From the IMG/VR virus record IMGVR_UViG_3300021425_003554: a stretch of DNA of 64,000 bases. The stretch is one strand, 5' to 3'. Source of the DNA: a virus (taxonomy: Duplodnaviria; Caudoviricetes). Shown in pieces: positions 12,425 through 58,527 of this stretch. The position numbers and the translations under genes were made by a program. Under the pieces are notes generated by a model, which was not told where the DNA came from, did not search any database, and was given only the letters and a program-made list of their open reading frames with translations. Within the stretch, counting starts at the first letter, position 1. Every line of letters starts with the position of its first letter.

Positions 12425-13343
12425 AATAGTATTCTAGTCCTTGATCAAAAGTTGTTTCTGGTTGATAATTCAATAATTTTTTGGCTCTGGATATATCCAA
12501 TGTTCCTCTACGAGGATAAAGTTTATGAGCACCTGTATCAACTATATCACTCTTACTGCCTGTGAGTTTTATAATCTTTTCTGCCGCCACACGTAATGAT
12601 GTGGCATTGCCCGCAGTAATATTGAAACTTTGATTGGCTTCGTCTGATAATGTTGCTTTTATGATACCTTCCGCTGTGTCATTGATATAAGTAAAATCTA
12701 CTTTGTTGTCACCATCGTGTACTTCTATTGTTTCGTTATTCATTGCTTTCTGGAAAAATTTACTTAATACCCTGTCTTCCATGTCTCCTGGACCATAGAC
12801 TCCGCTCGGTCTTACTATTGCATAATTTATTTTATGTTGAGCGTGATAATGTTTGACGAATCGTTCCGCAGTTAATTTAGATTCTCCATATAAATTGTTC
12901 GGTTTGGTATCTGCGTCTTCTTTGGTTCCATCGGAGAAGTGTCCGTATATCATTGACGAACTAACAAACACAAACTTTTTCACAGGCATATATTGGCAAT
13001 GAGAAAGAAGATTTACTGTTCCTCCTATAATATTTTGTACTCCCACCCACGGATTATTGTTTACTATTTTTGCTCTAGGATATGATGCTAGGTGTATCAC
13101 ATAATCTGGTCTATTTTTAAAAGCAGACAATACATCATCTTGTTTTGTTACATCTCCATTTTTACAATAAACCTTTTTCCAATTTCTCTGTCTCCAAGAA
13201 TATAATTTTTCGAGATCTTTTTCCGAAATCACTCCGTATGTTTCTTTATTATCCATTACTACAACACTATGGTTCATTTCAATTAATCTTTCAACAATCC
13301 TAGATCCTATAAAACCATAACCTCCTGTGACTAAAATTCTCAT
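12399..13343 (-). CDS. NAD-dependent NDP-sugar epimerase/dehydratase (extended SDR)
   Basis: VTGGYGFIGS, SSS, YGESK (YxxxK), GVYGPG, DFTYIND. Confidence 0.92.
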   Translation of the reverse strand: MRILVTGGYGFIGSRIVERLIEMNHSVVVMDNKETYGVISEKDLEKLYSWRQRNWKKVYCKNGDVTKQDDVLSAFKNRPDYVIHLASYPRAKIVNNNPWVGVQNIIGGTVNLLSHCQYMPVKKFVFVSSSMIYGHFSDGTKEDADTKPNNLYGESKLTAERFVKHYHAQHKINYAIVRPSGVYGPGDMEDRVLSKFFQKAMNNETIEVHDGDNKVDFTYINDTAEGIIKATLSDEANQSFNITAGNATSLRVAAEKIIKLTGSKSDIVDTGAHKLYPRRGTLDISRAKKLLNYQPETTFDQGLEYYYEWLQNKI

Positions 13344-14827
13344 AAAACTTTTACTCCATATTTGTTGGTAAATGCTTTACCATCATCTTTGTCATTTACT
13401 ATAGGTTGTCCTTTTATATTCAAACTGGTGTTAAGCAGTATAGGGCAACCTGTTTTCTTTTTCCATTGCGTAAGCAATTCATAAAACCCTGGATTGTCTG
13501 CTTTAGACACTGTTTGAACCCTACTCGTGTTATCGTAGTGTATTATGGCAGGAAAGTCTTTACCATGCGTACAAACCGCTGTGTGTTGCATATAAGGGGT
13601 GTTTTTAACACCTTTAGGTAGGGTAAAATACTCGTTCACATCCTCTTCTAATATGGCTGGTGCGAATGGTCTAAACTTCTGTCTTTTTTTAATACCATTT
13701 ACCAAATCCTTGATTTTTGATCCTCTAGGATCAGCAAGTAATGATCTATTACCAAGTGCTCTTGGTCCAAACTCCGCCCGACCATTAGCCACTCCCACCA
13801 TTTTATTTTCCAACAATTCCTTTATGAGAGCATCCACAGGATATTCTCCCTCTATGTTCGTGCCCAAAAATGGATGTTTCCAATTTAGGTGTCTGTGCAT
13901 CGAAGCGGCTATACAACCCAACGAACTACCCGCATCTCCGGGGTTGGGCATGATCCATGATTTATCGTATATTTTCTTGTTCATTAAGATTGCATTGGCC
14001 ACACAATTTAATGCCACGCCTCCACCATAACATAAATTACGACTTTCACCATATTTGCTCACAGCACGTTGTCCGTCTGGTATGTAAGTCGTACTCCATT
14101 GCCATATATGAGTGAGTGCTTCTTGTATGACTTTTTGAATGGATGCGGCAAGATCCATGGGATCCGCTTCCGGTAACCAATTTCCTATTCCTCTGTGTAA
14201 ATTTCTTTTTAATTCCAGGGTTCGATAATCTAACAATTCATTGTAGATATTATCTCGGTACTTTGGTGTTCCGTATGCTGACATTCCCATCAATATGTAT
14301 TCTTCCTCTGCGGGTTTCAATCCAACTCTTTGTGTAAAAGCAGAATATAAGATTCCCAGTGAATGAGGATATTCCATGCTTTCCAGTTTTTCTATTTCGT
14401 TGCCTTTGGCTTTCCATATAGTCATAGTTTCCCATTCTCCTATGGCATCCACACACAACACCATGGAATCTGTAAAGGGCGATGTGAAAAAACTTCCGGC
14501 CGCATGCGAATGATGATGATCTACATACTGGTCAATTTTGATTCCAAACTGTTTTAAATGTTCCGATGGCAGATTCTGTGTTGTAAAAACTTCCGACCAT
14601 TGTCCCGCTCTAATCTGTCGTTTCTTTTTTAACCATGGTTTTTCATAATACACCACTTTGTCAAAAGGACCATAACTCATTGCCTCGTTCACTATCCCCC
14701 AGTTCAGGTGATGATCATTTTTTATCTTGCTGTATCTCTCGCTATGTGCGGCCCATAGAATATCTCGGCCGTCAACCACAGCCATGGCGGCATCATGATT
14801 CATACAATTTATTCCTAATATTCTCAT
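13340..14827 (-). CDS. NodU/CmcH-family carbamoyltransferase
   Basis: HDAA, SERYSKIKND, HHHSHAA, DAIGE, GGVALN, PGDAGSSLG, EFGPRALGNRS, RPFAP, LNTSLN. Confidence 0.93.
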   Translation of the reverse strand: MRILGINCMNHDAAMAVVDGRDILWAAHSERYSKIKNDHHLNWGIVNEAMSYGPFDKVVYYEKPWLKKKRQIRAGQWSEVFTTQNLPSEHLKQFGIKIDQYVDHHHSHAAGSFFTSPFTDSMVLCVDAIGEWETMTIWKAKGNEIEKLESMEYPHSLGILYSAFTQRVGLKPAEEEYILMGMSAYGTPKYRDNIYNELLDYRTLELKRNLHRGIGNWLPEADPMDLAASIQKVIQEALTHIWQWSTTYIPDGQRAVSKYGESRNLCYGGGVALNCVANAILMNKKIYDKSWIMPNPGDAGSSLGCIAASMHRHLNWKHPFLGTNIEGEYPVDALIKELLENKMVGVANGRAEFGPRALGNRSLLADPRGSKIKDLVNGIKKRQKFRPFAPAILEEDVNEYFTLPKGVKNTPYMQHTAVCTHGKDFPAIIHYDNTSRVQTVSKADNPGFYELLTQWKKKTGCPILLNTSLNIKGQPIVNDKDDGKAFTNKYGVKVL

Positions 14828-15207
14828 AAAGATTCTATATATTTTTTTAATTCTTTATCCTGCACATCGGTAGGTATTTCATTTTTGTAAAATATCCTAT
14901 AACTATCACTGCCATATTTTCCTATTCCGTGTAGATCCGACGCATCTTCACCATCCCAGGTTAAAAATTGCTCGCTCATTTTTCTCAATCTTTCCGATCT
15001 CACACGCCACATTCCCAAAGGTTTTAATAATTTTTGCTGTGCTGATAATCTACCTTTGAGGTAACTTTTGGCATTCGGATATCGTTTGAATAATTCACTT
15101 AAAACACGTTTGGCTTGTTTTCTGTAAGTTTGATTGAGGCAGATAACACCCACCATGTGTTGCCATTTGTTTTTGACCTGCTGTTGTACCATTAGATCTT
15201 CTCTCAT
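14824..15207 (-). CDS. MBD4-like HhH-GPD DNA glycosylase (stand-alone catalytic domain)
   Basis: W..MV..ICLNQT, LLKPLG, HhH LHGIGKYGSDSYRIF and QDKELKKY parallel the MBD4 motifs LNRT, LLKPLG, LHGIGKYGNDSYRIF and EDHKLNKY. Confidence 0.78.
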   Translation of the reverse strand: MREDLMVQQQVKNKWQHMVGVICLNQTYRKQAKRVLSELFKRYPNAKSYLKGRLSAQQKLLKPLGMWRVRSERLRKMSEQFLTWDGEDASDLHGIGKYGSDSYRIFYKNEIPTDVQDKELKKYIESL

Positions 15208-15569
15208 ATCAGTTCTCCACGATCACGCATCTGTTGTCTTATATTTGTTGCGGATATCTTTTGAGTTTCTTCATCTAACACTATTTCTTCTATTTTGTAA
15301 CCCACACCCCTGCCATAACATATGTTTGTTATGTTGGGTACTAGTATCACTTTGAACTGCCCTTCAAACTCGGGATTGAGCCTTTCCTCAATATTTTTCT
15401 TAACAGTTTCAAAATCAAATGGATTGTCATCAACACCTTGTACATCTCTGACCATTATCAATACCTGCCCTGTTTTTTTGTGTATCTCCTGGAACAATTT
15501 ATAGTGCCCGTCATGGAACGGTTGCCATCTTCCTAGCATTTGTGCTGTTGGTTTTTTATTGTCCCACAT
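15204..15569 (-). CDS. HxGH nucleotidyltransferase (cytidylyltransferase/NadM-like)
   Basis: LGRWQPFHDGH motif and C-terminal ISATNIR. Confidence 0.8.
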   Translation of the reverse strand: MWDNKKPTAQMLGRWQPFHDGHYKLFQEIHKKTGQVLIMVRDVQGVDDNPFDFETVKKNIEERLNPEFEGQFKVILVPNITNICYGRGVGYKIEEIVLDEETQKISATNIRQQMRDRGELI

Positions 15570-15993
15570 TTTTCTTCTCCCATATTATATCTCGTATTTC
15601 CTGTGTTATCAAAAATGCCCAAGTCTCAGCATCTTTTGATGTACATCTAAAATCAAACGTTGTCGGTGGCTGAAAAAGTTTGTTGGTGTCCTCAAATCTA
15701 CCCTCTTTGATTGTGTCCATCCATATCAGATAATCTGCTTTGAATTGTGCTCTTGTTTCTTCAGTGGGGCAAACAAAATCAGCGATCACAACTCTGCCTT
15801 TGTCTAACGCCTCTTCGGCGTACGTCCACATCCTCAGTGCTTGTCTCTTTCTGCCTTCGTCTGAGAAATCCCAATCATTGCATTCTTCTCTTATCTTGTC
15901 AGCATTTAGCCATACAGCATTCAACCTTGGTGCTATCATTTTTGCCAATGTAGTTTTGCCCGATCCGGGTAGTCCCATTATCAATATTTTCAT
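15556..15993 (-). CDS. adenylylsulfate (APS) kinase-like P-loop kinase
   Basis: GLPGSGKTT, LNADKIR, DWDFSDEGRKRQ, ADFVCP. Confidence 0.75.
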   Translation of the reverse strand: MKILIMGLPGSGKTTLAKMIAPRLNAVWLNADKIREECNDWDFSDEGRKRQALRMWTYAEEALDKGRVVIADFVCPTEETRAQFKADYLIWMDTIKEGRFEDTNKLFQPPTTFDFRCTSKDAETWAFLITQEIRDIIWEKKNVGQ

Positions 15994-16553
15994 TTTAGTT
16001 TAAAAAACCCTTTCGCTCTTTCTAAATACTTGTTCCATTGTTCCAGTGTAATGTCATATTCAAAATTTTGTGTTGTGTCGTTGCGTTGTAATAGTTTTGC
16101 TCCGTTCTTTATATGAAACCTTTCGGCCATTTCTGTCAAAGGACTTAAAGTGACTAATCTTTCTATGTGTTGTTCTCTTTTAAATTTTTTAAAAATTTCG
16201 TTTAATATGTGTTTTCCGCCACCTTTCATTTTGGCCCAAACTGTATAAGCAACTGCTATTTTTCCCACTATGCCTGCCCGCAACACTGACGGACCGGCCG
16301 CATCACGACTCAACATATCTAGTTCTTCGACTGTTGTGGGGATTTCATTTGTGAATGCTATGCATATGATTGCCATGATATCACCATTTTTGTTTTTGAG
16401 TCCATAAATTTTTCTTCCGTAGATAGTACGAAATGTGAGAGACAATTCCGGTCTCACCGGATCCTCTGTTATATCTATATCATTCATTTCGATCAAACTA
16501 AATTTAGAATTCTTTCGAAAAATATTGTTTATTTTTTCTTTTAATTTTTCCAT
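15990..16553 (-). CDS. miniature malonyl-CoA decarboxylase-like (GNAT-fold) protein
   Basis: ICIAFTNEIP, AVAYTV, LVTLSP and RFHIKNGA parallel the MCD motifs VAL...I, AIFYSI, TLSP and RFHLxNGA. Confidence 0.55.
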   Translation of the reverse strand: MEKLKEKINNIFRKNSKFSLIEMNDIDITEDPVRPELSLTFRTIYGRKIYGLKNKNGDIMAIICIAFTNEIPTTVEELDMLSRDAAGPSVLRAGIVGKIAVAYTVWAKMKGGGKHILNEIFKKFKREQHIERLVTLSPLTEMAERFHIKNGAKLLQRNDTTQNFEYDITLEQWNKYLERAKGFFKLK

Positions 16554-17203
16554 TTTGTAAAAACTACTTCTTTTTTTCTTGATCTTCCAAATTCTTTATA
16601 TCCCACACTGTCTAAAAACTCTATTATTTGTTTTCCTTTTCTTCTTTGTGCTTCATTTTTATGTTCTATTTCCACGTTCAATACACAGTCATTATTTCGT
16701 AGTGTTTCTTCGCCGCCTAATAAGATGTCGTATTCACTACCTTGTGTATCAATCTTTATTAGATCAACATCGGTAAATTTAAAATCATCTAATTTTTTTA
16801 CTTGTAATTCAGATTTATCAACATTATCTTCAAATATTTGATCTCTAAAAAAACTATGTCCTCCTGATGTTGTAGGACTGATATAAAATTCTTTGACTTC
16901 TTCTTTACTACCTAAACCAACTTCATGTAAAGTGAAGTTTTTATAGGTTTTTAAATTTTCTTTAAGACATTTAATATTTGACGGATCCGGTTCAAAAATT
17001 ATCACTTCATTGAACTTATTACAAAAATCTTTGCTCCAAAATCCAATATTGCCACCTATATCAATTGCTTTTCGAAATTGTTTTACTCTGGCCAATGCAT
17101 ATTCTCGTTGAAGGCGTTGATACGTTGTTTCATTGTTGATACGCATCCATTCTTCATAATGAACATCATAGTCTGGCAAAAACCAATTGTGTACTGTTTT
17201 CAT
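16541..17203 (-). CDS. FkbM-family SAM methyltransferase
   Basis: AIDIGGNIG, IFEP, GLG, LIKIDTQGSE. Confidence 0.88.
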   Translation of the reverse strand: MKTVHNWFLPDYDVHYEEWMRINNETTYQRLQREYALARVKQFRKAIDIGGNIGFWSKDFCNKFNEVIIFEPDPSNIKCLKENLKTYKNFTLHEVGLGSKEEVKEFYISPTTSGGHSFFRDQIFEDNVDKSELQVKKLDDFKFTDVDLIKIDTQGSEYDILLGGEETLRNNDCVLNVEIEHKNEAQRRKGKQIIEFLDSVGYKEFGRSRKKEVVFTKWKN

Positions 17204-17204
17204 T

Positions 17205-17309
17205 TTACTTGTAAATAAAAGGGTCTTTTTTCTTTAATTCTTTTAGTCTTTTTCTATAAGCAATTTGTTGCTTTACTTTATCAATCAAAGACCTAATCCA
17301 TTTGATCAT
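17205..17309 (-). CDS. 34-aa basic microprotein absent from the ORF track
   Basis: hand translation MIKWIRSLIDKVKQQIAYRKRLKELKKKDPFIYK; AGGAG SD 7 nt upstream; TAA lies 1 nt before the FkbM ATG. Confidence 0.75.
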   Translation of the reverse strand: MIKWIRSLIDKVKQQIAYRKRLKELKKKDPFIYK

Positions 17310-18102
17310 TTTTTTCTCCTATTATTTTTTTAAATTCGGGTAACATTAACATTATAGCATCTTTATGTGCTTGGTCAAGCGGATGAGTTGATGCTCTCGG
17401 ATAGTCATTTAAAAGTGCCCATTGGTTAAATCCCATATGCCTGTCTCCAAAAGTGAACCATTTGGTAAAATCTATTTCTTTTAAAAGATTTTTTAATAAT
17501 TTGTCGTTTTGGTATAATAATTCAAATTCTTCCCAGAATAATGTGTTATCGGCGAGTGTAAACATAAATGGTATTTTCTTTTTTTCTAATATATTTTGTA
17601 ACCAAACGATGCTTTTCCAACTTAGATATGTTTCATGATAACGATTTGCCGCATTCTTATAAAGTGAATCGGCAAATGCTGTGACTTTCGCATCAGAAAA
17701 CTCTTTTCTTCTTTTTTTAAAATCTTGTATTACTGAATCATTACCTATCAAAGTTTTTAATACTTCTGCTTCGTTTTCTGTACAGTCCCAGGGGGTTATA
17801 GTGGCCCAACGAGTATCTTCTAATATGTTATGTCTAGGCATCGCCCAATCATAACGTGAAGGAAAAGTCCACATAACAGTCACAGCAACCTTTCTGTTAT
17901 CGTTGTCCGAAACTGCGTTGAACACCCTTCTGGCTATACCGGAGTTCCCTAACCCTCCTTTTGCCGAATTGACAAAATCCATGCCTGTTTGTTGTGACAA
18001 TAATGCCGCCCATGACATTTTTGAAGGATTGATACCATCGTCGTCAGATAATTCGTTACCAAATGTAAAACTACAACCACCTGCTACCAATACGTCACTC
18101 AT
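17293..18102 (-). CDS. SGNH/GDSL-hydrolase-like protein
   Basis: block I GGCSFTFG, block II GG.GNSGI, block V-like STHPLDQAH. Confidence 0.6.
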   Translation of the reverse strand: MSDVLVAGGCSFTFGNELSDDDGINPSKMSWAALLSQQTGMDFVNSAKGGLGNSGIARRVFNAVSDNDNRKVAVTVMWTFPSRYDWAMPRHNILEDTRWATITPWDCTENEAEVLKTLIGNDSVIQDFKKRRKEFSDAKVTAFADSLYKNAANRYHETYLSWKSIVWLQNILEKKKIPFMFTLADNTLFWEEFELLYQNDKLLKNLLKEIDFTKWFTFGDRHMGFNQWALLNDYPRASTHPLDQAHKDAIMLMLPEFKKIIGEKNDQMD

Positions 18103-19294
18103 AAATCTTTAATAGATTATTTAAATCCTTAAAAGTTTCTCCGAAATTTTCTTTCCTGACGGAATCGATTGATTTTATTTTTTCAGTTAATGCTTTTTTC
18201 CAATCCTTAATCTTGTAGTCAGGTTCTCCGTTAATATAGTCAATAGCCGTCTGTATTTCTTGTTGGTATATTTCAGTTTTTCTAAGTTTGTCAATTATCT
18301 GTTGCTTGAGCTCTCTAGGAATCTGTTGTATATCAAACTCCACAGGATGATGCAATATGTTTATGTACCAAAAATCTGGATTCCATTCTTTTACTTTATG
18401 TGCTAACTCGTCAATGTTCCATATGTTAAAAAAATTTAGAGTTGTGCATATCTGCGTAGAAAGATTTTTTAATCCTGAATTTAAAAATCGATTTATGTTT
18501 GAATCAACTTCTGTCCATACAGCAGGATGTCTTTGATACTCAAAACGTTTTTCAATATCGTCAATGCTGAATGCTATTTCTACCCTTTTAAAATGTGGCC
18601 AAATGTCTTTTACTGCTTCTTCCGGATACTGTGTACCATTGGTGTTGTAATGAACTTCTATTTTATCTGCCACTCCTGCTTCCACACACTTACGTAAAAT
18701 TGAAAATTGCTCTTTTATCATTAATGGCTCTCCGCCCGTGATCTCAAAAAATCTTATCGAGTCTATGTGCTTCTCTAGATCTTCATAAAATTTGTTAGGC
18801 TGTCTTGGCCATAATCCATCTCGATTGAATTTTTTCCAATAGTCTTTTCTGTTCGGGTCTATCTTGATCATGTCGTTCGTCCATTGAGAACTTGAGTGAG
18901 GCGAACATATTCTACATTTTAGATTACAAATATTCCCCAACTTTAAATCAATAAACCTAGGCGAAACTATATTTTTTTGTATATGAGTTTGACCTATTAC
19001 TCCTGCCTTTAACCACATATGTTGTCTCTTTGAAGTTTTACCCACTGCTTCTTCTTTCCAACAACTGCTACAACTACTGGGTTTTTCTCCATTTAAAAAT
19101 TGTTTTCTCAAATCATCCATGGCATCGGAATTCATTACTTCCGATATCGAATGTTCGGTTGTATTGTATTTTTTCCCGGAAGTGTCTTTCAATTCTTCCC
19201 TATACAAACAGCAAGGCTTGTACCTGCCATCGGGCCTAGTTTCTAAACTAGTCCATGGAAGATGACACATATTACTTTTTAAATATTTTTCCAC
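18095..19294 (-). CDS. radical SAM protein with N-terminal SPASM/twitch-like domain (type A)
   Basis: CHLPW...PCC...CSSC, then CNLKCRIC (CxxxCxxC), ITGGEP, YNTNGT, FSID. Confidence 0.9.
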   Translation of the reverse strand: MEKYLKSNMCHLPWTSLETRPDGRYKPCCLYREELKDTSGKKYNTTEHSISEVMNSDAMDDLRKQFLNGEKPSSCSSCWKEEAVGKTSKRQHMWLKAGVIGQTHIQKNIVSPRFIDLKLGNICNLKCRICSPHSSSQWTNDMIKIDPNRKDYWKKFNRDGLWPRQPNKFYEDLEKHIDSIRFFEITGGEPLMIKEQFSILRKCVEAGVADKIEVHYNTNGTQYPEEAVKDIWPHFKRVEIAFSIDDIEKRFEYQRHPAVWTEVDSNINRFLNSGLKNLSTQICTTLNFFNIWNIDELAHKVKEWNPDFWYINILHHPVEFDIQQIPRELKQQIIDKLRKTEIYQQEIQTAIDYINGEPDYKIKDWKKALTEKIKSIDSVRKENFGETFKDLNNLLKIYE

Positions 19295-20592
19295 CAGTCT
19301 AATATCCTTTTATCTTTTTCAAGTATTTTTGTTATGTCTTGATTCCTTAATTTATCGATTGATTCTTGTCTGCTCTTGCCACTCTTTTTTCCCCTGAAAG
19401 CATCAAATCCTAAAAACATATCATCGATATTTGCTCTCATCTTTAAATTTTTGAGAGTGTCTATCAATGCCTGTTGTTTTCTGTTTGCCTTTGGTTCCAT
19501 GTATTCTAATGCTTCATCTATAATTTCGCACATGAGTTCTCTAGGCAATGCCAACGGACTCAACACAGCCGATGCACTAAAAGTGAACATCACTTTGGTC
19601 AATATTTCTACATCTAATTCCCGGCTCAGATCAAACATATTTTTTAATTCTAATAATCCTGGCATTGTGATTGTGAAATCTAATCTCATTTCCCTTGATG
19701 TTTTTGCTACCGCCAATCCTTTTTTAAAATTACCTAACCATTCTTTGTAATTCAATCCATCACGTATGTATTCTCCCACATCTCCTGTTCCGTCGATCGA
19801 AGCACATATTTGCCAATCCTGAAACTGTGGCAACAACTTAAAAAGATCAATATTCTTAAATGTTGTTCTACTTAAATTGGTATTATATCTAACATAAACA
19901 TCCTTTGAAAATCCCAAATCAATTATCCTTTGCATACTGTTCCAGTGTATTTCCCACATCAACGGTTCTCCGCCACACCAATATATTTCTTTTATTTTTT
20001 TTGTTTCTATCGCATCAGTAAACTCTTGTACTATTTGTGTGTCTTGAAAATTTTTAATTTGTTCACGCAACGGAGAAGCCATCCATGGTTGAGAATCTTC
20101 GTTCCATGTTTTGTTTTTCCTCGACTCGGCTTCCCAACTGGAACTCAACATATCTCCGCACATTCTACATTTGAAATTACATAGATTATTAAATCTATAA
20201 TCAAAACTTATCGTAGGCATTGTGGTTGCTCCGTTTTCGTCTGTGCTTTCAAATGCTTCGTCTATTTTATTAGCAAAGAGTTTGTTCCAATAAGATCTAT
20301 AGACATTTGTATTCAACAGTTTATGATCACATACCTGGCATTCGGATAATTCTTCTCCGGCTAGCATTCTTCGTCTCACAGAACGCATATGTTCTGAATT
20401 CCAATGTTCTTCTAACGTTAGAGGTTTATACTCATTGGCATCATTTCCTGTATCTATGTACTGCTTAAAACTTTGTGCTGGTTCTCTTGAAGCACAACAC
20501 ATACGCCTTTCTGTTTGTGGAGAAAGGTATGTGTGCGTCCAAGGCGCCATACAAAATGTTTTATTGCCTTCGTTAGGCTTAATTTTTTTCAT
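19279..20592 (-). CDS. radical SAM protein with N-terminal SPASM/twitch-like domain (type A)
   Basis: CMAPW...MCC...CQVC, then CNFKCRMC, CGGEP, YNTN, ASIDG; ATG at 20592 preferred over 20643. Confidence 0.9.
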   Translation of the reverse strand: MKKIKPNEGNKTFCMAPWTHTYLSPQTERRMCCASREPAQSFKQYIDTGNDANEYKPLTLEEHWNSEHMRSVRRRMLAGEELSECQVCDHKLLNTNVYRSYWNKLFANKIDEAFESTDENGATTMPTISFDYRFNNLCNFKCRMCGDMLSSSWEAESRKNKTWNEDSQPWMASPLREQIKNFQDTQIVQEFTDAIETKKIKEIYWCGGEPLMWEIHWNSMQRIIDLGFSKDVYVRYNTNLSRTTFKNIDLFKLLPQFQDWQICASIDGTGDVGEYIRDGLNYKEWLGNFKKGLAVAKTSREMRLDFTITMPGLLELKNMFDLSRELDVEILTKVMFTFSASAVLSPLALPRELMCEIIDEALEYMEPKANRKQQALIDTLKNLKMRANIDDMFLGFDAFRGKKSGKSRQESIDKLRNQDITKILEKDKRILDWWKNI

Positions 20593-21871
20593 ATTTGTCA
20601 AATAACTCTTTCCATTCTGGAAATATTTCAAGAGTATTTTCATTTCTTATCTTATCATATCTCCGTGTATTAACAAAAAATAGATCTAGATGTTTTTGGT
20701 TATCTGTTGAGAACATCCAATCCAATGCAGATTCAAAACCTTTTGTTGCCCTAGTAAGGGAATCCTGGTCCTTCAACCATTTGATGTGTTCATTGTATTT
20801 CTCTTTCACTTGTTCCTTATATTCCGGAGGCAATATGTCCATCCGTTGCCATATAGGATGTTGTAATAAATTAAAATTAAAATCTTGTGGTTTAATCAGA
20901 CCTTGTTCTACCCAACTTTTATGGAAATCAGTGACATGAAGACTGTTTATAAGTCCCACCGTTGAACTGATATAAAAGTCCACTTGCGGACATATTTCCA
21001 TCATACGCTTTCTATTGGCTATTATTTGTTCCCACACTGTGCCTTTACGCATTAATTCTGCTCTAGGACCCTCGGCATCGAGACTGGCTCCAACTGACAC
21101 TGAATCAAATTTATTCCATAATTCAAAAACATCTATGTCCTTAAATGTCGTTCTACTAAAGTTGGTATTGTATATAAGCCTAACATGATACATTTTACGT
21201 TTGTCTAGTTCTTTTAAAATACGATAATGTTCTTCCATTATTATTGGCTCTCCACCAGCAAAATAAAACTGTTCTGTGTGCTCAAACTGTTCTAGCATCT
21301 GTTCCCATAGATCATTTGTGCTTCTACCAACTTTCATTACCTTGGCGTGTGGAGGAGGACTACCTGTAAGTTTTTTGTGATCTTCATACCAGTTACTACT
21401 GAACCATGTTCCGCAACTCCTACAAGCCATGTTACATAAATTTGAAAAACGTATATCCCAATATTTCATAACAAAATCTGCTTTGCCGTCTGGAAGCGTG
21501 TTGTGTACTAACGGAATGTTATGACCAAAATGTTTGTTAGAACTTAGACGTAGGCTAAAAAATCCAGATTTCTCTTGATCGTAACATTTCATACACTCTC
21601 GAGATTTCTGATTGTTCAGCATACGTATTCTCATGTCTTTCATTTTGTCACCGTTGAAAACTTCTTCCATGCTGTTTTCATTTAGATTTCCCACCGGATA
21701 AGGATCAAACGCAAAACAACAAGGATACGCTCTGCCATCAGGATATGCATGAAGATGCATCCAAGGTAGTATACAGAAAGTGTCACTTTCGATCAGTAAC
21801 TCTTTCTCCCTATCGGTCATGTCTTTTATTTTTAATTTTTCAGGCTCTTTGGCCCCGTACTCATATGCCAT
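20579..21871 (-). CDS. radical SAM protein with N-terminal SPASM/twitch-like domain (type A)
   Basis: CILPW...PCC...CMKC, then CNMACRSC, AGGEP, YNTN, ASLD. Confidence 0.9.
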   Translation of the reverse strand: MAYEYGAKEPEKLKIKDMTDREKELLIESDTFCILPWMHLHAYPDGRAYPCCFAFDPYPVGNLNENSMEEVFNGDKMKDMRIRMLNNQKSRECMKCYDQEKSGFFSLRLSSNKHFGHNIPLVHNTLPDGKADFVMKYWDIRFSNLCNMACRSCGTWFSSNWYEDHKKLTGSPPPHAKVMKVGRSTNDLWEQMLEQFEHTEQFYFAGGEPIIMEEHYRILKELDKRKMYHVRLIYNTNFSRTTFKDIDVFELWNKFDSVSVGASLDAEGPRAELMRKGTVWEQIIANRKRMMEICPQVDFYISSTVGLINSLHVTDFHKSWVEQGLIKPQDFNFNLLQHPIWQRMDILPPEYKEQVKEKYNEHIKWLKDQDSLTRATKGFESALDWMFSTDNQKHLDLFFVNTRRYDKIRNENTLEIFPEWKELFDKYEKN

Positions 21872-23204
21872 TGTACCATTCTCCTATAATTGGGAAAGTT
21901 TTTTTGAAATCCTTGCCCCTACGTTTGTCATATTGACTATAAAATGCCTTAAAATCTTTTTGTAATTTATCCTGTGTGGCCGCACCTGCGTGTGGTGTTT
22001 TGACCACATCAAGGTAATCTATTAATCGTGTTGTGTGATTTATTTCCATTTGTTCCAACCATTTTTCGTTGTTCGTTAAAAATTTTTCAATGTCACCTTT
22101 AAATCTGTTTCTTAATTCGTCAGGCAATACTAACGGTGATTGGAAACTAGGAAATCTTAATATGTTGAGTGTGTAATTAATCTTTGGTCCATAGACCTTG
22201 CTAGAATGTTTGAACCAAACAATCTTTTCAAGAAATTCCGGTAACGATTCTAAACACAATGCATTGATTGTACACATATTGTGGATCTCTACCGGCACTT
22301 TATCTACCATCATGTGTAACACTCTGCTGAACCAATCTCCATAATCCAATCCATCTCTGATATATTCTGCTTGTTTAAAAGTTGCTTCATTACTGGTGTA
22401 TAAATGAAAGTTTTTAAATCCTTTTAGTTTAGTTTTAAAATCATCGATTATGCTTTGTTTTGCTCCTAGATTAGAATTGATAGCAATACGCATATCTGGA
22501 TTCATTTTATCACCTTGGGTTTCTATCCAATCTAGCAATCTCCATAGGTGAGGAGACATCATTGGTTCTCCACCTGTTATTCTTAGTTCATCTAAAGTTT
22601 TATGTAGGTCCGAATCCCACCATTTAAAAAATGCTTCCACATACGGATTGGTCTCATTTAATTTATACGGTTGTGATTCTTCATGAGAATGTGTGAAATG
22701 ATTACGTCCGTCTGATTTTAAATCTGTATAGGGTCCTTTTTGTTTGATGTCGTTTGCCCACGTCGACGAAAATGCAGGATTACAGTAAGAACAAGCAAAA
22801 TTACAAGTTCTATCAAATGCAATTTCTAAAGTTTTGAGATTGATATCTTCGGTTATAGGAGTCTGGCTTGCTGTTATCATGTCTGCATTAGAATATATTT
22901 TGCTTTTATATACTCTATCGCTTACAGCATCTCTTTTCATGTCCTCTATCTTCCAACAATATTCACAACCTGCGGGTCTTTCTCCCGCGATCATTTTGGC
23001 ACGATCGTTTTTCTTTTCCGGAGTATTGTGTAACAATTTTGGATTCTGCGTTACTTTAGCAAGATCAACTTTGTGTGCTGGCGGATGGTGGCAACTTGTG
23101 GTCATGCCAGATCCCAGCCATATGGTAGCATTGTACCATTTTGCTCCACAAAACGATGGAGATATCGAATCTAAAAACTGTTTTTTGTAATCTATATCTT
23201 TCAT
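21861..23204 (-). CDS. radical SAM protein with N-terminal auxiliary-cluster domain (type B)
   Basis: CGAKW...SCHHP...CEYC, then CNFACSYC, ITGGEP, INSN. Confidence 0.9.
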   Translation of the reverse strand: MKDIDYKKQFLDSISPSFCGAKWYNATIWLGSGMTTSCHHPPAHKVDLAKVTQNPKLLHNTPEKKNDRAKMIAGERPAGCEYCWKIEDMKRDAVSDRVYKSKIYSNADMITASQTPITEDINLKTLEIAFDRTCNFACSYCNPAFSSTWANDIKQKGPYTDLKSDGRNHFTHSHEESQPYKLNETNPYVEAFFKWWDSDLHKTLDELRITGGEPMMSPHLWRLLDWIETQGDKMNPDMRIAINSNLGAKQSIIDDFKTKLKGFKNFHLYTSNEATFKQAEYIRDGLDYGDWFSRVLHMMVDKVPVEIHNMCTINALCLESLPEFLEKIVWFKHSSKVYGPKINYTLNILRFPSFQSPLVLPDELRNRFKGDIEKFLTNNEKWLEQMEINHTTRLIDYLDVVKTPHAGAATQDKLQKDFKAFYSQYDKRRGKDFKKTFPIIGEWYNGI

Positions 23205-23803
23205 TATATGTACTTAAACACTTTCTCTGCCCACTGTTTATTTTGTTCAATCGTCATATGATTTATTTTTCCTTTGCCCCAATGATCTCGGCCACCACTG
23301 AAACTGAACATACTTTCATCGATGAATATTCCTGTTGTTAATTTTATATTGGCATTTTTGTCTGCCGTTTCAAATGGTTTAAAACTCCACATCTGTATTA
23401 TTTTTTTGTTTTGTAATTTAGATAAAACGTGTTGATCATAATATTTCAAAGCATACTCGTATGCTAATTCGTCCTTGTCATAATTGTGTAAATGTTTCCA
23501 ATAATTTTCCAGTGTTTTATAGATGTCTGGGTCTACTCCTTCCAGTGGTTCTGTGTTGGCACTCAATATCAAATTCGGATGGTATAGTCTATATGGTTCT
23601 GTCCAACAAAATATCGAATAATCCGGAACACGATCTTGTTCTATCAATTTGTTAAACCTAAAAAATACACTCCATATGCTTCTTCCAGGTTCGCCAAACC
23701 ATCGTATACGATCACAACCTAATTTCTCTTGAAGTATATTACACCAACTCTCGGATTGATTGCTGGCACAGAAACTATCTCCAAAAAATCCTATTGTGCT
23801 CAT
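23204..23803 (-). CDS. SGNH/GDSL-hydrolase-like protein
   Basis: IGFFGDSFC (GDS block I), GEPGRS, terminal INH motif. Confidence 0.6.
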   Translation of the reverse strand: MSTIGFFGDSFCASNQSESWCNILQEKLGCDRIRWFGEPGRSIWSVFFRFNKLIEQDRVPDYSIFCWTEPYRLYHPNLILSANTEPLEGVDPDIYKTLENYWKHLHNYDKDELAYEYALKYYDQHVLSKLQNKKIIQMWSFKPFETADKNANIKLTTGIFIDESMFSFSGGRDHWGKGKINHMTIEQNKQWAEKVFKYI

Positions 23804-25170
23804 GAGTTTCTACACTCCTCCCAAAACTCTCGCATTTCAGGAAATATTTTTTCAAAATTTGTTCTTCGTCTACGATCGTGTTCTGTAAAAAATGTGTAAA
23901 AATTCTTTTTTTGTTTTTTATCATCGGTATAATTTTTTTGCCAATAAGAAAGATTACGTTGCATTTTTTGTATTTCAAAATCTTTAAACAACGAAAAATC
24001 TTTTTGATTCTCTCCCGAATTCGATTTCATCCATTCAATATTGTCTTTGTGTATCTCTTGATACGATTCGGGTAATAGTGTTACTTGTTGCCATTCTGGT
24101 TGACGTAGTATGGGTATATCGAACCATACTCGTTGATACGTGGTTGAATGTTTTTCTCGAAGATGCTTGATATCTTCAAGTAACTTTCTTAGACCTGTGA
24201 CACTAAGATTGTTATAGGTTATTATGAAGGTAACTGAATTACGTACAGGAATCATTGTCAAAAAATGATCTACGTTGTCTAACATTTTGTTGTAATCGAG
24301 ACCATTACGAATATATTCTGCTTGTTTACCCCAGGTATCTACAGAGACGAACTGCATGAAATGTTCTACTTTTTCTTCATGGCAAATACGACTAACTGCA
24401 TTAAAATATTTTGTTTTTAACTTGGGATCAGGTGGACACATATTCGAAGTTACATTTAGGTGTAGATCTTTTTTTGGATTATCTATGATGTAATCAAATA
24501 CCTTGTAAGTGTTCACATCCATCATGGGCTCTCCTCCGGTCATTCTAAAATGTTTCAATCCCTTATACAATTCAGGCCACCATTTCCAGAATGCTTCCAC
24601 ATACGGATTAGATTCTCTATTTGGTATGGGTTGTCTTCTTCCTGAGAAATGTGTCGGGTCATTGTGTACAGGTGATGTAGGATATCCACCGTACATATTG
24701 ATTTCTTTACCCCACGTTGTTGAAAATTGAGGAGAACAATAGGAACAAGCAAAATTACAGGCATTGTTAAAATTGACTTCTACATAACGAGGAGTATGTG
24801 TTGTATTAAAAGGATCTTGCTTAATTTTATCAAAATCCTCCATGGCCCATGGCTCACCAGAACGATAGTGTCGGTCACTCATTTCGCCAGTGTCTTCCAT
24901 TTTCCAACAGTAAGAGCAACCTGCAGGTCGTTCACCTGCGATCATTTGTTTTCGTTGTCGAATTTTTTCTTCGGTGTTGTGCAATGCCGCTGGATTTGAT
25001 GCCAGCGAATCTTTATCAATCTCATGCAGTGGAGGATGATAACATGAATTGGTTAATCCAGTGGGTAGATGTAAAGACACCTGATTCCATTTTGCTAGAC
25101 ACATCGTAGGCGAAATTGAAAGTAATTTTTCCTTGGCTTTCTCGGCATCTGATTTGTAAACACTACTCAC
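23800..25170 (-). CDS. radical SAM protein with N-terminal auxiliary-cluster domain (type B)
   Basis: CLAKW...SCYHP...CSYC, then CNFACSYC, MTGGEP, VTSN; ORF track start 25236, GTG at 25170 overlapping the upstream stop is likelier. Confidence 0.9.
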   Translation of the reverse strand: MSSVYKSDAEKAKEKLLSISPTMCLAKWNQVSLHLPTGLTNSCYHPPLHEIDKDSLASNPAALHNTEEKIRQRKQMIAGERPAGCSYCWKMEDTGEMSDRHYRSGEPWAMEDFDKIKQDPFNTTHTPRYVEVNFNNACNFACSYCSPQFSTTWGKEINMYGGYPTSPVHNDPTHFSGRRQPIPNRESNPYVEAFWKWWPELYKGLKHFRMTGGEPMMDVNTYKVFDYIIDNPKKDLHLNVTSNMCPPDPKLKTKYFNAVSRICHEEKVEHFMQFVSVDTWGKQAEYIRNGLDYNKMLDNVDHFLTMIPVRNSVTFIITYNNLSVTGLRKLLEDIKHLREKHSTTYQRVWFDIPILRQPEWQQVTLLPESYQEIHKDNIEWMKSNSGENQKDFSLFKDFEIQKMQRNLSYWQKNYTDDKKQKKNFYTFFTEHDRRRRTNFEKIFPEMREFWEECRNS

Positions 25171-26050
25171 GATCCTGCACTCCTTTATTAACATAAGGTT
25201 TTTGACAAAATTTAAAAAAACGACTGCCTTCGGCATTAAAAGTGCTGATTGGAATATCTAATTTTTGTTTCAGACTATTTCCGTACATTTCTATATCTTC
25301 ATCCAAATCATTGATTGCATGAAAAAAACTTTTACAACTGTCTAAGTTTCTAACATTTTCTAAATTAAAATTACTTTTTATGGTTGCTTGATAACAACCA
25401 ACTCTTGCACCTAACATGGCGTATTTTCCATATTCAACATCTGCCCCGATGCTTTGCCATATGGACAGTATTCGTAAATTGTGTTGATGTATCTTATTTG
25501 AAAAATCCAAAGGTGAAATTCTATTACCTTGATCTAAACTCATCTTTACACCTTCTCGAAATCCGGCAACAAATGCCTGCTCCGGTGAAAAGTTGATTAC
25601 TGTATTACTATAAACATTATGTAAATTTTCATGAGGTACTGTCCAACAAAAATCTATTTTGGCTTTTTCGTCCTCTGCATTTTCATGGGTTTTCATTTTC
25701 AAACAGGTTTCTTTATCCCATCCAACGACTCCTCCGTTGCCATATATCAATCCGTTTATTGAATTTTTTGCTTTCCATCTGTGTACTGCTTTTTTATTAG
25801 TTTTCGTCCAATCTAATTTTTGTAATAAAAATGAAGGATCAATAACATTGTCTCCGTCTATGGATATAAAAAAATCTGTTTCTGCGATCTCTGCCGCGGC
25901 TTTGTGTGCATTATCAAAACCTTTGACTCCATCCACACGTTTTGCCCAAGGCACGATGTTTAATAGATTAGCATAATTTTCTTCCTTGTTGGGTTCATAA
26001 AAAGATATGAACACAAAATCTAAATCACTTATTCTAACGGTGTCTGCCAT
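25163..26050 (-). CDS. GT-A-fold glycosyltransferase-like protein
   Basis: DFVFISFYEP..EEN, GVKG, FFISIDGDN (DxD); start at ATG 26050 preferred over 26083. Confidence 0.7.
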   Translation of the reverse strand: MADTVRISDLDFVFISFYEPNKEENYANLLNIVPWAKRVDGVKGFDNAHKAAAEIAETDFFISIDGDNVIDPSFLLQKLDWTKTNKKAVHRWKAKNSINGLIYGNGGVVGWDKETCLKMKTHENAEDEKAKIDFCWTVPHENLHNVYSNTVINFSPEQAFVAGFREGVKMSLDQGNRISPLDFSNKIHQHNLRILSIWQSIGADVEYGKYAMLGARVGCYQATIKSNFNLENVRNLDSCKSFFHAINDLDEDIEMYGNSLKQKLDIPISTFNAEGSRFFKFCQKPYVNKGVQDRE

Positions 26051-26334
26051 GTGTACCCCCCTTCCTTGAATCCTACGGGCCAATATGGATCTCCATCTAA
26101 GAACACATATCCTTCTTTTGATTTTTTAAGTTCATTAAATATTCTGCCGGTCTTTTTGATAGGTTTTTTTACAATCTTGCCATCACTGTCCAACATCCAT
26201 TGTTCTATTCCTGATTTTTGTATTTCTAACATTGTTTCGTGAGACACTTCCATAATTTTTCCATCTATGGTCACCAGATCTGGTTTTCTTTTCCTAGGCT
26301 TGAAATTACCTAATGCGTTAAAAAATTCGGTCAT
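26029..26334 (-). CDS. hypothetical protein
   Basis: 101-aa ORF with GGAG SD, overlapping both neighbours. Confidence 0.65.
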   Translation of the reverse strand: MTEFFNALGNFKPRKRKPDLVTIDGKIMEVSHETMLEIQKSGIEQWMLDSDGKIVKKPIKKTGRIFNELKKSKEGYVFLDGDPYWPVGFKEGGYTWQTPLE

Positions 26335-27867: not shown

Positions 27868-28182
27868 TCAAACCCTTTTTTTTAATTGATTATATAATTG
27901 ATGATATTCGTTTAGTGCTTCTTGATTTCGTTTTAACAGTGTTTCTAAAAATTCTTCTGGGTTGGTTATTTCGCAGGGATTTTCGTTGCTGTCTAGAATG
28001 AAAAATGTTTTGTGTGTTTTTTTTAATGTGTCAACTAGGTTGATGGTATCGGCATCCGCAGAAAATATAGAACCGTTATAAGCAACAACTTGTCTGGACC
28101 TTGCTCTTTCCAGAGCATTCCTTTTGGCCGTTGCTACTTCGAAACTTAGATCCGATTGTTTTTTTAAGTCAGATAATTCCAT
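27868..28182 (-). CDS. hypothetical protein, first gene of the modification operon
   Basis: 104-aa ORF starting 6 nt after a -10 box. Confidence 0.7.
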   Translation of the reverse strand: MELSDLKKQSDLSFEVATAKRNALERARSRQVVAYNGSIFSADADTINLVDTLKKTHKTFFILDSNENPCEITNPEEFLETLLKRNQEALNEYHQLYNQLKKRV

Positions 28183-28188
28183 ACCACA

Positions 28189-28217
28189 ATTATAACATAA
28201 TTATGGCTAGAACTCAA
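28189..28217 (-). promoter_or_regulatory. sigma70-type promoter of the modification operon, leaderless
   Basis: minus strand TTGAGT(28217-28212)-17 nt-TATAAT(28194-28189), then 6 nt to ATG at 28182. Confidence 0.65.
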
Positions 28218-28234
28218 CCTGGTAAAATTAATTA

Positions 28235-29206
28235 CTAGGCAGTACTGTTTGATGTTACCGCAGTCGAAGACGGAACATACGCTGTTGTTAAACCGTTTGT
28301 TGTGTTAGGGTTTAAAGTCAACAATGTGTGTCTTGTCTGACCAATGAAGTTGGCATATTGATCAACACCTGAAGTGTTACCAGATGTAAATGTGCCATCT
28401 CCGCCGTCTGGATCATTGAACTCTACTCTCACTGTGATCGCTGTTGCTGTTCCCACTGCACCATTCAATTTTGCTTGTATGTCTAGGTACATTGAAGTGT
28501 AACTGCCACCATCTTGTGTGAGTCTAAGTATTGTTTGATAAGACGTTGTTAGGTCATGATAACCAAGAGCAAGTCCGTTTGTACTTACTGTTTCAGTTGA
28601 ACCTGATCTTGTAGATAATTGTGAACCAATCGCAAGTCTTCCCAACCCAGTTACCAATTCGCTGAGTGAGTTGTCTTTTGATGTTGCTGAAGAACCACCA
28701 TTACCTATTCTTGATGTGTCTATTTGAATTTTTCCGCCAGCGTTAAAGAACCATCTCATTTCATTACCACTTGAAAAGTTTGTAGTAAGTTCTGATACAT
28801 GGCTACCTGTCCATCTTGTGCTGGAGTCTGCATTTTGTAATGCACCTGACTGAGTCAATCCTCCTGATGCTGATGGGCATCCTGCCGCAACCGCTGTGGC
28901 TAGATTTGCCAAGTCAGTTTGTAATGCTGAAATAATCGCAACATTATCACCTGCCGCTTTTGCTGTTGTTGATGTTAATGAAACTTCTGCATGGTTGGCA
29001 AGGTTGTCCATGGCACCGAATAGTGAGTTCCATTGGGCCGCTGTTACCGTGTTACCTGCTGTTACTGTTGAAATTGTCGTTTGTCCTAAACCATACGCAC
29101 CTGATCCTGTTCCGATCATGTGGTTGATTCCGTAAGGTGATGAGCTACTCGCCGCGAACGAGTTATATTCATCATCTAAAATTGTGTCACCTGCTGTATA
29201 CGCCAT
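28235..29206 (-). CDS. virion structural protein (tail-fibre/baseplate associated)
   Basis: Ser/Thr/Gly-rich; MAYTAGDTI N-terminus; last gene of the structural operon; AGGAG SD. Confidence 0.6.
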   Translation of the reverse strand: MAYTAGDTILDDEYNSFAASSSSPYGINHMIGTGSGAYGLGQTTISTVTAGNTVTAAQWNSLFGAMDNLANHAEVSLTSTTAKAAGDNVAIISALQTDLANLATAVAAGCPSASGGLTQSGALQNADSSTRWTGSHVSELTTNFSSGNEMRWFFNAGGKIQIDTSRIGNGGSSATSKDNSLSELVTGLGRLAIGSQLSTRSGSTETVSTNGLALGYHDLTTSYQTILRLTQDGGSYTSMYLDIQAKLNGAVGTATAITVRVEFNDPDGGDGTFTSGNTSGVDQYANFIGQTRHTLLTLNPNTTNGLTTAYVPSSTAVTSNSTA

Positions 29207-29207
29207 G

Positions 29208-55933: not shown

Positions 55934-55949
55934 ACATTTATATTACGAG

Positions 55950-55957
55950 TATTTATT
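55950..55957 (-). promoter_or_regulatory. T4-like late promoter candidate (AATAAATA)
   Basis: in the 44-nt intergenic gap upstream of the gp6-like gene. Confidence 0.55.
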
Positions 55958-55977
55958 GTTTTAATTATGTACGTATA

Positions 55978-56388
55978 TTAAGAAAGATTAAATGTTGAAT
56001 TTTGATCAAAATTAAAAGACAATTTCTCGGTAATATTATATGGTATGTATGTTAGTGTTGCTTGTACACTTATTCCTTGCCCGTTTTCGCTTACAACTAT
56101 GTCGGATGTGCTCACTCTAGGATCTGCGTTTAAATTTTCGGATATATCGTTGGCAATCAATTCTTTTGTGGCATTTGTTAGAGGTTCAAACAACATATCG
56201 TATATAATTGTGCCAAATTCTGGATTTTCCACACGCTCGCCTTTTCTGATCGACAATCTATTCATAAGATTTTGTTTGATCAAAGCAAAATCATATAATT
56301 TATAATTGCTCTGCTCTGCTTTAGAACTAAAACCCTTGAACAGAGTTTGATTTTGTTGTTTGTTTGATGGGTTATTTGAGTATGCCAT
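55978..56388 (-). CDS. baseplate wedge subunit, T4 gp25-like
   Basis: LIKQNLMNRL..RKGERVENPEFG...LFEP. Confidence 0.88.
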   Translation of the reverse strand: MAYSNNPSNKQQNQTLFKGFSSKAEQSNYKLYDFALIKQNLMNRLSIRKGERVENPEFGTIIYDMLFEPLTNATKELIANDISENLNADPRVSTSDIVVSENGQGISVQATLTYIPYNITEKLSFNFDQNSTFNLS

Positions 56389-56390
56389 AT

Positions 56391-58523: not shown

Positions 58524-58527
58524 AATT

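Follow-up and report, generated by a model that had tools for sequence, protein, structure and literature searches.

The window analysed here is a 64,000-nucleotide stretch of DNA from an uncultured marine Caudoviricetes virus (IMG/VR record IMGVR_UViG_3300021425_003554), and its minus strand carries, at positions 18095-25170, a tandem array of five radical S-adenosylmethionine (SAM) enzyme genes, here called rS5 to rS1 from upstream to downstream. The listing of open reading frames (ORFs) gives five intact genes with overlapping or abutting ends and, together with the motifs, bears out a first-pass annotation made from the sequence alone, which had placed five intact CxxxCxxC enzymes in this interval. 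The end coordinate given there is also exact: the longest ORF of rS5 spans 23800-25236, and judging from the sequence its real start is most likely the GTG at 25170, since this codon has an AAGGAG Shine-Dalgarno (SD) sequence 9 nt upstream and yields a protein of 456 aa, the commonest length among homologues. The start of rS2 may lie a few codons further downstream. Coordinates of all features are collected in Table 1.

Table 1. Positions of the five radical SAM genes and of other features in the 64,000-nucleotide window.
Feature	Position	Strand	Remarks
Radical SAM gene of another kind, QueE-like	59..952	+	phrog_2076, E 4e-54
HNH/hydrolase-like gene	6942..8174	+	
Downstream sugar-tailoring block	10063..17203	-	Pfam, NCBIfam
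433-aa ORF	10063..11364	-	within downstream block
HhH-GPD ORF	14824..15207	-	within downstream block
FkbM methyltransferase	16541..17203	-	within downstream block
34-aa micro-ORF, C-terminus ...KELKKKDPFIYK	17205..17309	-	conserved; SD present
269-aa ORF, GGCSFTFG (GDS-like) N-terminal motif	17293..18102	-	conserved downstream partner of array
Sigma-70-like site	17351..17378	-	TTGACC, 16 nt, TG-TATAAT; 11/12
rS1, type-A N-terminal-twitch radical SAM	18095..19294	-	399 aa, GTG start; NF033640 361.1 bits; SPASM 10-79
rS2, type-A N-terminal-twitch radical SAM	19279..20643	-	454 aa; NF033640 316.1 bits; SPASM 31-106
rS3, type-A N-terminal-twitch radical SAM	20579..21871	-	430 aa; NF033640 399.4 bits; SPASM 33-97, E 2.5e-13
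rS4, type-B N-terminal-twitch radical SAM	21861..23204	-	447 aa; NF033640 299.1 bits
199-aa ORF, N-terminal FFGDS motif	23204..23803	-	between rS5 and rS4; variable filler of array
rS5, type-B N-terminal-twitch radical SAM	23800..25170	-	456 aa from GTG 25170 (most likely start); NF033640 327.1 bits
306-aa ORF, DGDN motif	25163..26083	-	conserved upstream partner of rS5; syntenic in all cassettes, 43-67%
Two paralogous GT-A/GT8-like ORFs, 268 and 249 aa	26318..27866	-	phrog_1903; in all cassettes
104-aa ORF and two fibre-like structural genes (323 and 536 aa)	27868..30818	-	directly upstream of enzyme block
Baseplate/structural genes	52460..60747	-	

All five proteins match the NCBIfam family NF033640 (N_Twi_rSAM, "twitch domain-containing radical SAM protein") at 299-399 bits, well over its curated cut-off of 170 bits, and the matches run end to end, covering about positions 1-398 of the 398 in the profile. 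The architecture common to the five is that of the family, an N-terminal four-cysteine twitch region followed by a CxxxCxxC barrel. In an alignment of the five proteins, C46, C65, C107 and C110 are invariant and lie upstream of an equally invariant C160-x3-C164-x2-C167; a GGEP motif is invariant as well. The radical SAM motif, GGEP and an AlphaFold2 barrel that aligns with known radical SAM structures (Z 8-13) place the proteins in the radical SAM superfamily, and all five should bind a [4Fe-4S] cluster and cleave SAM, as predicted from sequence. No B12-binding domain (PF02310) was matched in any of them by Pfam, and B12-radical SAM genes occur as neighbours in the bacterial clusters only. The four N-terminal cysteines, spaced C-x18-C-x41-C-x2-C in rS5, are nearly invariant over 97 family members, and every related array examined retains CxxxCxxC and 4-7 upstream cysteines in all copies. 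Only these four are conserved in the N-terminal module, which is the twitch (one-cluster) pattern and is consistent with one fully ligated auxiliary cluster; the seven-cysteine pattern of a full SPASM domain is absent, with no conserved cysteine at +5 or +3 past the CxxC and no seventh cysteine. In BtrN the auxiliary cluster has four cysteine ligands, whereas that of MoaA has three and an open iron site (PMC9012708).

SPASM and twitch domains have been described as C-terminal extensions of the barrel (PMC9012708). In all five enzymes the auxiliary domain instead occupies approximately residues 30-100, ahead of the barrel. The entire Pfam SPASM profile is matched at the N-terminus of rS1, rS2 and rS3, before the Radical_SAM match, and NCBIfam partial matches align residues 40-102 of rS3 with the C-terminal SPASM regions of StsB (333-391 of 466) and DynA (257-312 of 356); the domain order is therefore truly reversed. 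The N-terminal placement of a SPASM/twitch-like cysteine domain proposed in the first-pass annotation thus holds, as does its division of the enzymes into two subfamilies: type B (rS5 and rS4) shares 37% identity and each of its members is only about 21% identical to the type-A proteins rS3, rS2 and rS1, with the two types forming separate clades in the tree described below. The reversed order is unusual among studied enzymes, yet it belongs to a recognised family. The permuted architecture itself is not a new discovery, being already curated as NF033640 and present as a whole fold in clusters of cellular proteins in the AlphaFold DB. The contribution of the locus to the family lies in its five diverged paralogues, which form a fixed set within a phage glycan cassette.

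To place the five genes, a maximum-likelihood tree was built from all family members in seven cassettes (the window and the related loci L001, L006, L012, L021, L024 and L025), two cultured phages and two bacterial loci. It resolves five orthogroups, each with 100/100 support and with exactly one member per cassette (7 contigs); extra, very divergent copies bring the total to seven in L021 and six in L025. Among cultured phages, the 344-kb soil Ralstonia jumbo phage RsoM2USA (MG752970) has one protein, RsoM2USA_202, within the rS4 orthogroup (53% identity) and another, RsoM2USA_349, beside the rS5 orthogroup (35% identity). The rS3 orthogroup is sister to bacterial members (Chitinophaga and others), and rS3 is the most conserved copy and the closest to them, while rS1 is the fastest evolving, at 44-46% identity to its orthologues. 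Comparing the window with L001 or L006, pN was 0.08-0.39 and pS saturated at 0.64-0.79, which indicates purifying selection on all five genes; dN/dS for rS4 is about 0.11.

The five genes are thus a fixed, non-redundant set of anciently diverged paralogues, and their separate retention as five orthogroups implies five different steps or substrates. That they might be recent, redundant or decaying duplicates without distinct roles is suggested by their tandem arrangement, paralogy and membership in one family, but it is barely credible: pairwise identity is only 21-37%, the orthogroups are kept separately, all motifs are intact in each copy of each cassette under strong purifying selection, and a distant soil phage has orthologues of two of the copies. 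The first-pass annotation had spoken of a permuted, duplicated family and had allowed that the copies might prove redundant or degenerate. Permutation stands, with the qualification that it was already curated; "duplicated" is better replaced by "anciently diverged paralogues", because the Ralstonia phage has a separate orthologue for each of rS4 and rS5, and redundancy is refuted by the orthogroups, the pN/pS values and the intact cysteine motifs.

The family as a whole is very large. An exhaustive phmmer search with rS3 returned 9,847 clusters at 50% identity with E<=1e-3, 1,306 of them at E<=1e-30, and word-indexed searches with rS3 and rS5 found thousands of marine metagenome proteins at 75-89% identity. 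Near-identical rS3 proteins occur on contigs of up to 295 kb. A megablast search of the 7-kb array region against 50,697 phage records gave no match; among virus records the closest (G001) is a 34-kb fragment in which all five genes recur. Fusions to TPR, Sel1 or ankyrin repeats are frequent among bacterial members, and one Chitinophaga genome (G002) carries four copies above the NF033640 cut-off and four just below it, dispersed over several contigs. NF033640 is a bioinformatic definition without an assigned function. A full-text literature search for N_Twi_rSAM, N-terminal twitch or N-terminal SPASM found no paper, and no solved structure or Swiss-Prot entry was found to match N_Twi_rSAM proteins beyond the common barrel. 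This agrees with the earlier statement that no function had been characterised for such phage arrays (none was found in the literature, the PDB or Swiss-Prot), and the family that the enzymes match is catalogued without being characterised, so that a match to an already characterised family, raised earlier as a way in which the idea could fail, did not occur.

AlphaFold2 models of rS3 (pLDDT 94.9, pTM 0.92) and rS5 (pLDDT 92.2, pTM 0.91) are confident, and each is a single compact protein. By VIA-align the best neighbours of the rS3 model are BlsE (7VOB) and the anaerobic sulfatase maturase anSME (4K36), tied at Z 12.9 over 221-225 residues with a root-mean-square deviation of 3.4-3.8 and 14-17% identity, followed by SkfB (Z 12.2) and by CteB, viperin and SuiB (Z 11.8). 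Among the Swiss-Prot models of the AlphaFold DB, TM scores reach at most 0.39, with MftC the top match over the core only, and a PDB profile search had a best E value of 0.0025, again for the barrel only. The full AlphaFold DB, on the other hand, contains many clusters of cellular proteins, themselves uncharacterised, that share the entire fold (TM 0.6-0.8).

The genomic position of the array gives clues to its function. Downstream, beyond the 269-aa ORF and the micro-ORF, is a block of genes that includes, according to Pfam and NCBIfam, an FkbM methyltransferase, a 187-aa ORF, a P-loop kinase, a nucleotidyltransferase-like gene, an HhH-GPD gene, a NodU/CmcH-type carbamoyltransferase, an SDR (NAD) epimerase/dehydratase, a DegT aminotransferase and a 433-aa ORF. 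In this block DegT spans 11354-12424, the epimerase/dehydratase 12399-13343, the carbamoyltransferase 13340-14827, and the kinase together with the nucleotidyltransferase-like gene 15204-15993. The carbamoyltransferase, epimerase and DegT genes are syntenic in L001, L006, L021, L024 and L025, whereas the HhH-GPD and FkbM genes have no counterpart in any related cassette examined and are recent insertions into the cassette of the window, not core components. Upstream of the array, beyond the 306-aa ORF and the two GT-A/GT8-like ORFs, lie the fibre-like genes; these encode Ser/Thr/Gly-rich proteins, and the 536-aa protein has PHROG virion structural and tail fibre matches. Synteny of this layout extends to metagenome contigs of 157-181 kb and to cassettes that are more distant.

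Part of the layout is also preserved in RsoM2USA, which retains two sub-modules of the cassette, genes _348-_355 (L015) and _199-_202 (L016), all annotated "hypothetical protein". From RsoM2USA_355 to _349 the genes are fibre-like, 104-aa, two glycosyltransferase (GT)-like (_352/_353), 306-like (_350) and type-B radical SAM, the same order as in the window; RsoM2USA_350 is 42% identical to the 306-aa ORF and immediately precedes the rS5 orthologue, and _348 is a 306-like paralogue. The second sub-module comprises the rS4 orthologue, two DUF6071 proteins and a carbamoyltransferase.

Family members occur near sugar genes in five independent settings, which together argue for a carbohydrate substrate. 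The window and its relatives have epimerase, DegT, carbamoyltransferase and GFO/IDH/MocA genes. Vibrio phage K566 has four NF033640 members, in between which lie two Pfam-verified GT8 genes and one GT4-like gene. The bacterial metagenome-assembled genome (MAG) GCA_035533295.1 has a Sel1-fused member among GT2, GT4, GT2, GT2, GDSL and B12-radical SAM genes, and in a second bacterial MAG, GCA_027401895.1 (DAHZHQ010000006.1; L026/L027), a sugar nucleotidyltransferase is followed by about ten consecutive radical SAM genes. The fifth setting is P0320, a GT2-N-twitch fusion protein. The array of GCA_027401895.1 includes two B12-binding radical SAM proteins, a 1,106-aa protein of two N-twitch units joined by TPR, and two more N-twitch proteins, and is followed by a GDSL-like gene and an asparagine synthase. 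Of the three substrates suggested in the first-pass annotation (a sugar, a base or a peptide), sugar is the best supported by these GT and sugar-nucleotide contexts.

We infer iron-sulfur binding, a carbohydrate substrate, the type of chemistry and the final target as follows. With somewhat more confidence than doubt, we read the array as five distinct N-terminal-twitch radical SAM enzymes that tailor a modified sugar within a phage glycan cassette, with the auxiliary cluster as an electron conduit; it most likely performs oxygen-independent radical chemistry on an unusual sugar decoration. Each enzyme is predicted to bind a SAM-cleaving [4Fe-4S] cluster on CxxxCxxC and, on the N-terminal twitch (half-SPASM) domain, a second one with four cysteines as its full set of ligands. 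The cassette, with its SDR epimerase/dehydratase, DegT aminotransferase, carbamoyltransferase, methyltransferase, kinase/nucleotidyltransferase pair and three or four GT-like proteins, would build and transfer a modified amino or deoxy sugar. The position or intermediate from which a hydrogen atom is abstracted, on either a nucleoside diphosphate (NDP)-sugar or an already transferred glycan, would differ from one radical SAM enzyme to the next, and the outcome could be oxidation, epimerisation, dehydration, decarboxylation or C-C bond formation. The four-cysteine auxiliary cluster may shuttle an electron, as has been proposed for BtrN, PqqE and SuiB, whose four-cysteine twitch/SPASM clusters accompany two-electron oxidations (PMC9012708). 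Such a conduit would favour net two-electron oxidations, or else rearrangements that are redox-neutral but depend on internal electron transfer. Virion fibres are the most likely site of the resulting decoration, with the host envelope as a possible alternative: a virion-directed product is favoured because the cassette is co-oriented with and abuts the fibre-like genes, and the link to fibres is drawn from the gene order, fibre-like genes through to type-B radical SAM, that the marine phage shares with RsoM2USA.

Comparison with characterised enzymes offers partial parallels. BtrN, the 2-deoxy-scyllo-inosamine dehydrogenase of butirosin biosynthesis (4M7T), has one auxiliary [4Fe-4S] site on a half-SPASM domain with four cysteines, the arrangement predicted for the array enzymes, and acts on an amino-cyclitol/sugar substrate in a pathway with a pyridoxal phosphate (PLP)-dependent aminotransferase, an enzyme type also present in this cassette (DegT). 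Its auxiliary cluster has been proposed to be the electron acceptor in a two-electron oxidation (PMC9012708). However, the BtrN twitch domain is C-terminal whereas that of the array is N-terminal, there is no significant sequence similarity, and BtrN is not among the best 50 structural matches of the model. BlsE, the twitch-type cytosylglucuronate decarboxylase of blasticidin S biosynthesis and hence a sugar-nucleoside enzyme, and anSME belong to the same SPASM/twitch branch and tie as nearest structural neighbours of rS3, but only the barrel aligns and their auxiliary domains are C-terminal. NCBIfam scores for these families fall far under the cut-offs (anSME 40 bits vs. 441, BlsE 17 vs. 400, MftC 16.6 vs. 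265). A parallel for the proposed target is provided by mycobacteriophages, in which, as summarised in PMC12619734 (citing Freeman et al. 2023), phage enzymes encoded beside structural genes decorate virion proteins; the systems as described in that summary use glycosyltransferases only, with no radical SAM tailoring known, whereas here we infer the virion glycosylation.

Several findings weigh against sugar tailoring. No known substrate was found for any NF033640 member. Even the closest of the solved structures match the generic barrel only (Foldseek against the PDB, TM 0.34-0.39; Z 12-13 over about 225 residues), and protein-modifying enzymes, namely anSME, SkfB, CteB and SuiB, tie with BlsE as structural neighbours. 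The repeat fusions of bacterial members suggest protein partners. One Chitinophaga MAG member (L013, 4998-12304), 40% identical to rS3, is flanked by the B12-dependent methionine synthase gene metH and the methylenetetrahydrofolate reductase gene metF and has no sugar genes near it. The GT assignment of ORFs in the window is also weak: the 249/268-aa proteins have no Pfam match, and hhalign to a Pfam-verified GT8 protein of K566 gives E 0.001 with a probability of 22%. The assignment of the 269-aa and 199-aa ORFs to the SGNH family comes from their motifs.

A rival that draws on some of these points is protein modification, in which side-chain or backbone chemistry such as epimerisation, cross-linking or Ser/Cys oxidation would take place on the neighbouring fibre-like proteins or on another phage or host protein, with the glycosyltransferases acting on the same protein. 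Besides the anSME, SkfB, CteB, SuiB and MftC neighbours and the repeat fusions, it is favoured by the location of the cassette directly after fibre-like genes, an order kept in RsoM2USA, and by the fact that most SPASM-domain radical SAM enzymes reviewed are peptide maturases (PMC9012708). Pfam, NCBIfam and PHROG nevertheless matched no RRE/PqqD domain, nor any other that binds peptides, either in the five enzymes or in the proteins encoded next to them, the structural matches are limited to the common barrel, and the family members in K566 and in bacterial clusters are surrounded predominantly by GT and sugar-nucleotide genes, with one fused to GT2. TPR fusions are, moreover, common on glycan-handling enzymes too. 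We regard protein modification as unlikely, though as a more serious contender than the readings that follow. DNA hypermodification, by a tailored glycan on hydroxymethylated bases or a remodelled base side chain, with the radical SAM enzymes acting on the DNA-linked group, would account for the HhH-GPD glycosylase-like ORF, the kinase, the PLP enzyme and the QueE-like radical SAM gene in the window. Thymidine hypermodification pathways use kinases, PLP enzymes and a radical SAM enzyme. Phage glycosyltransferases can also hypermodify DNA with diverse glycans, according to the account of Pyle et al. 2024 in PMC12619734. Yet the HhH-GPD and FkbM genes are not core, bacterial GT2/GT4/TPR/GDSL clusters, whose target is not phage DNA, contain the same radical SAM family, the cassette sits within a fibre gene block and not in a nucleotide-metabolism block, and no hydroxymethylase was seen within the 64-kb window. 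We consider this the least probable of the substrate alternatives.

A diffusible small molecule, marginally less improbable than a DNA target but still quite unlikely, might be aminoglycoside- or nucleoside-like, or else a glycosylated peptide-derived cofactor made as mycofactocin or PQQ is, for which the conserved 34-aa micro-ORF would supply the precursor. The combination of a twitch radical SAM enzyme, a PLP aminotransferase and a carbamoyltransferase recalls aminoglycoside pathways, and MftC is the top Swiss-Prot structural match, although over the core only. The micro-ORF is truly coding, to judge from its sequence, because its C-terminus, ...KEL(K/R)K(K/R)DPFIYK in six cassettes, is kept despite synonymous changes in 5 of the last 6 codons, and because an SD sequence precedes it; the invariant ...DPFIYK end is under selection. 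A degenerate version of this C-terminus was found at no fewer than 120 IMG/VR loci (>=120), in proteins of 32-50 aa whose N-terminus varies and is hydrophobic or amphipathic and whose basic C-terminus is invariant. Among the matches listed, however, an N-twitch radical SAM gene was present in 20 and absent from 16 of the 36 loci with >=7 kb of upstream sequence, and a carbamoyltransferase was the immediate downstream gene in 48 of 100. The micro-ORF is lacking in the radical SAM arrays of L024, K566, RsoM2USA and bacteria, the hydrophobic, membrane-helix-like N-terminus of its longer variants is unlike the leaders of RiPPs, peptides that are made by the ribosome and modified after translation, and the location in a fibre block better suits a virion-directed product. 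On this co-occurrence the micro-ORF was rejected as a substrate of the radical SAM enzymes and is an unlikely precursor, and the 34-aa peptide named as a candidate substrate in the first-pass annotation is a poor one, since it travels with the carbamoyltransferase and often without an N-twitch enzyme. With neither a co-inherited precursor nor a match to RRE/PqqD in enzymes or neighbours, the array does not resemble a RiPP maturase system. The micro-ORF could instead provide the phage "Nol-like" carbamoyltransferase with a membrane tether or a partner subunit, or act as its regulatory upstream ORF.

Were even one reaction assigned, a large block of "dark matter" in phages and bacteria would gain an annotation, and sugar chemistry of a new, oxygen-independent kind could come to light. 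It would also become clear what abundant ocean phages put on their fibres or hosts at a cost of about ten iron-sulfur clusters per enzyme set in iron-poor water. The strongest form of the proposal, that five different undescribed radical reactions produce a radical-SAM-tailored virion glycan on the fibres of abundant ocean phages, is tentative and rather doubtful; if true, it would supply the first function for a family of about 10,000 clusters with an N-terminally permuted auxiliary-cluster domain. The locus and six syntenic cassettes make up a defined, testable system of five non-redundant paralogues with fixed partner genes, and the cultured phages RsoM2USA (Ralstonia) and K566 (Vibrio), which carry orthologues or family members, make that system tractable.

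Many radical SAM genes, or "cassettes" of them, have been mentioned without analysis in large marine myophage genomes (Nishimura et al. 2017, PMC5332604; Zaragoza-Solas et al. 2020, PMC7029224). Those mentions give no family, architecture, orthology or function, and membership of the window in those phage groups is not established, although its layout fits the published description of the pelagimyophage host-recognition cluster. A pelagimyophage or T4-like affiliation was likewise not established: the only cultured-phage matches for the baseplate/structural genes are PA5oct-like Pseudomonas jumbo phages, at 22% identity. The HNH/hydrolase-like gene also has its best match in PA5oct-like phages (44%), and the virus is possibly a jumbo phage of marine origin and not a pelagimyophage of the T4-like kind.

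Among the remaining neighbours, the 199-aa ORF between rS5 and rS4 means that the array is not strictly uninterrupted. Among related cassettes it has a homologue at the equivalent site in L006 only; L001 has a different, 243-aa ORF with a weak DUF6071 match between the rS5 and rS4 counterparts, and L024 and L025 have no ORF at this junction. No Pfam, NCBIfam, PHROG or PDB match was found for the 199-aa ORF. The 269-aa ORF has orthologues at 56-60% identity in L001, L006, L011 and L012 and at 30-34% in L021 and L025. It shows no detectable relationship to the 199-aa ORF, and Pfam, NCBIfam, PHROG and the PDB gave no support for an SGNH fold; the SGNH assignment of both ORFs stays a motif-level guess. 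True GDSL-family genes do flank NF033640 members in bacterial clusters.

The 306-aa family has no Pfam or PDB match and showed no relation to the 249/268-aa family; weak Atlas leads point to GT2/GT92 (0.83-0.87). The 306-aa ORF is paralogous to the C-terminal half of the 433-aa ORF and to RsoM2USA_348 (tblastn, 24-36%), so that this family, for which there is no Pfam model, brackets the enzyme block. A profile of the 249/268-aa proteins matched only glycogenin in the PDB (E 0.3-0.9). The QueE-like gene at the start of the window is a sixth radical SAM gene, of another kind than the array, and its sequence suggests a 7-deazaguanine pathway elsewhere in the phage. A scan for promoters and terminators found sites no more commonly than in shuffled sequence; one near-consensus sigma-70-like site (11/12) falls within the end of the 269-aa gene, some 40 nt upstream of the micro-ORF.

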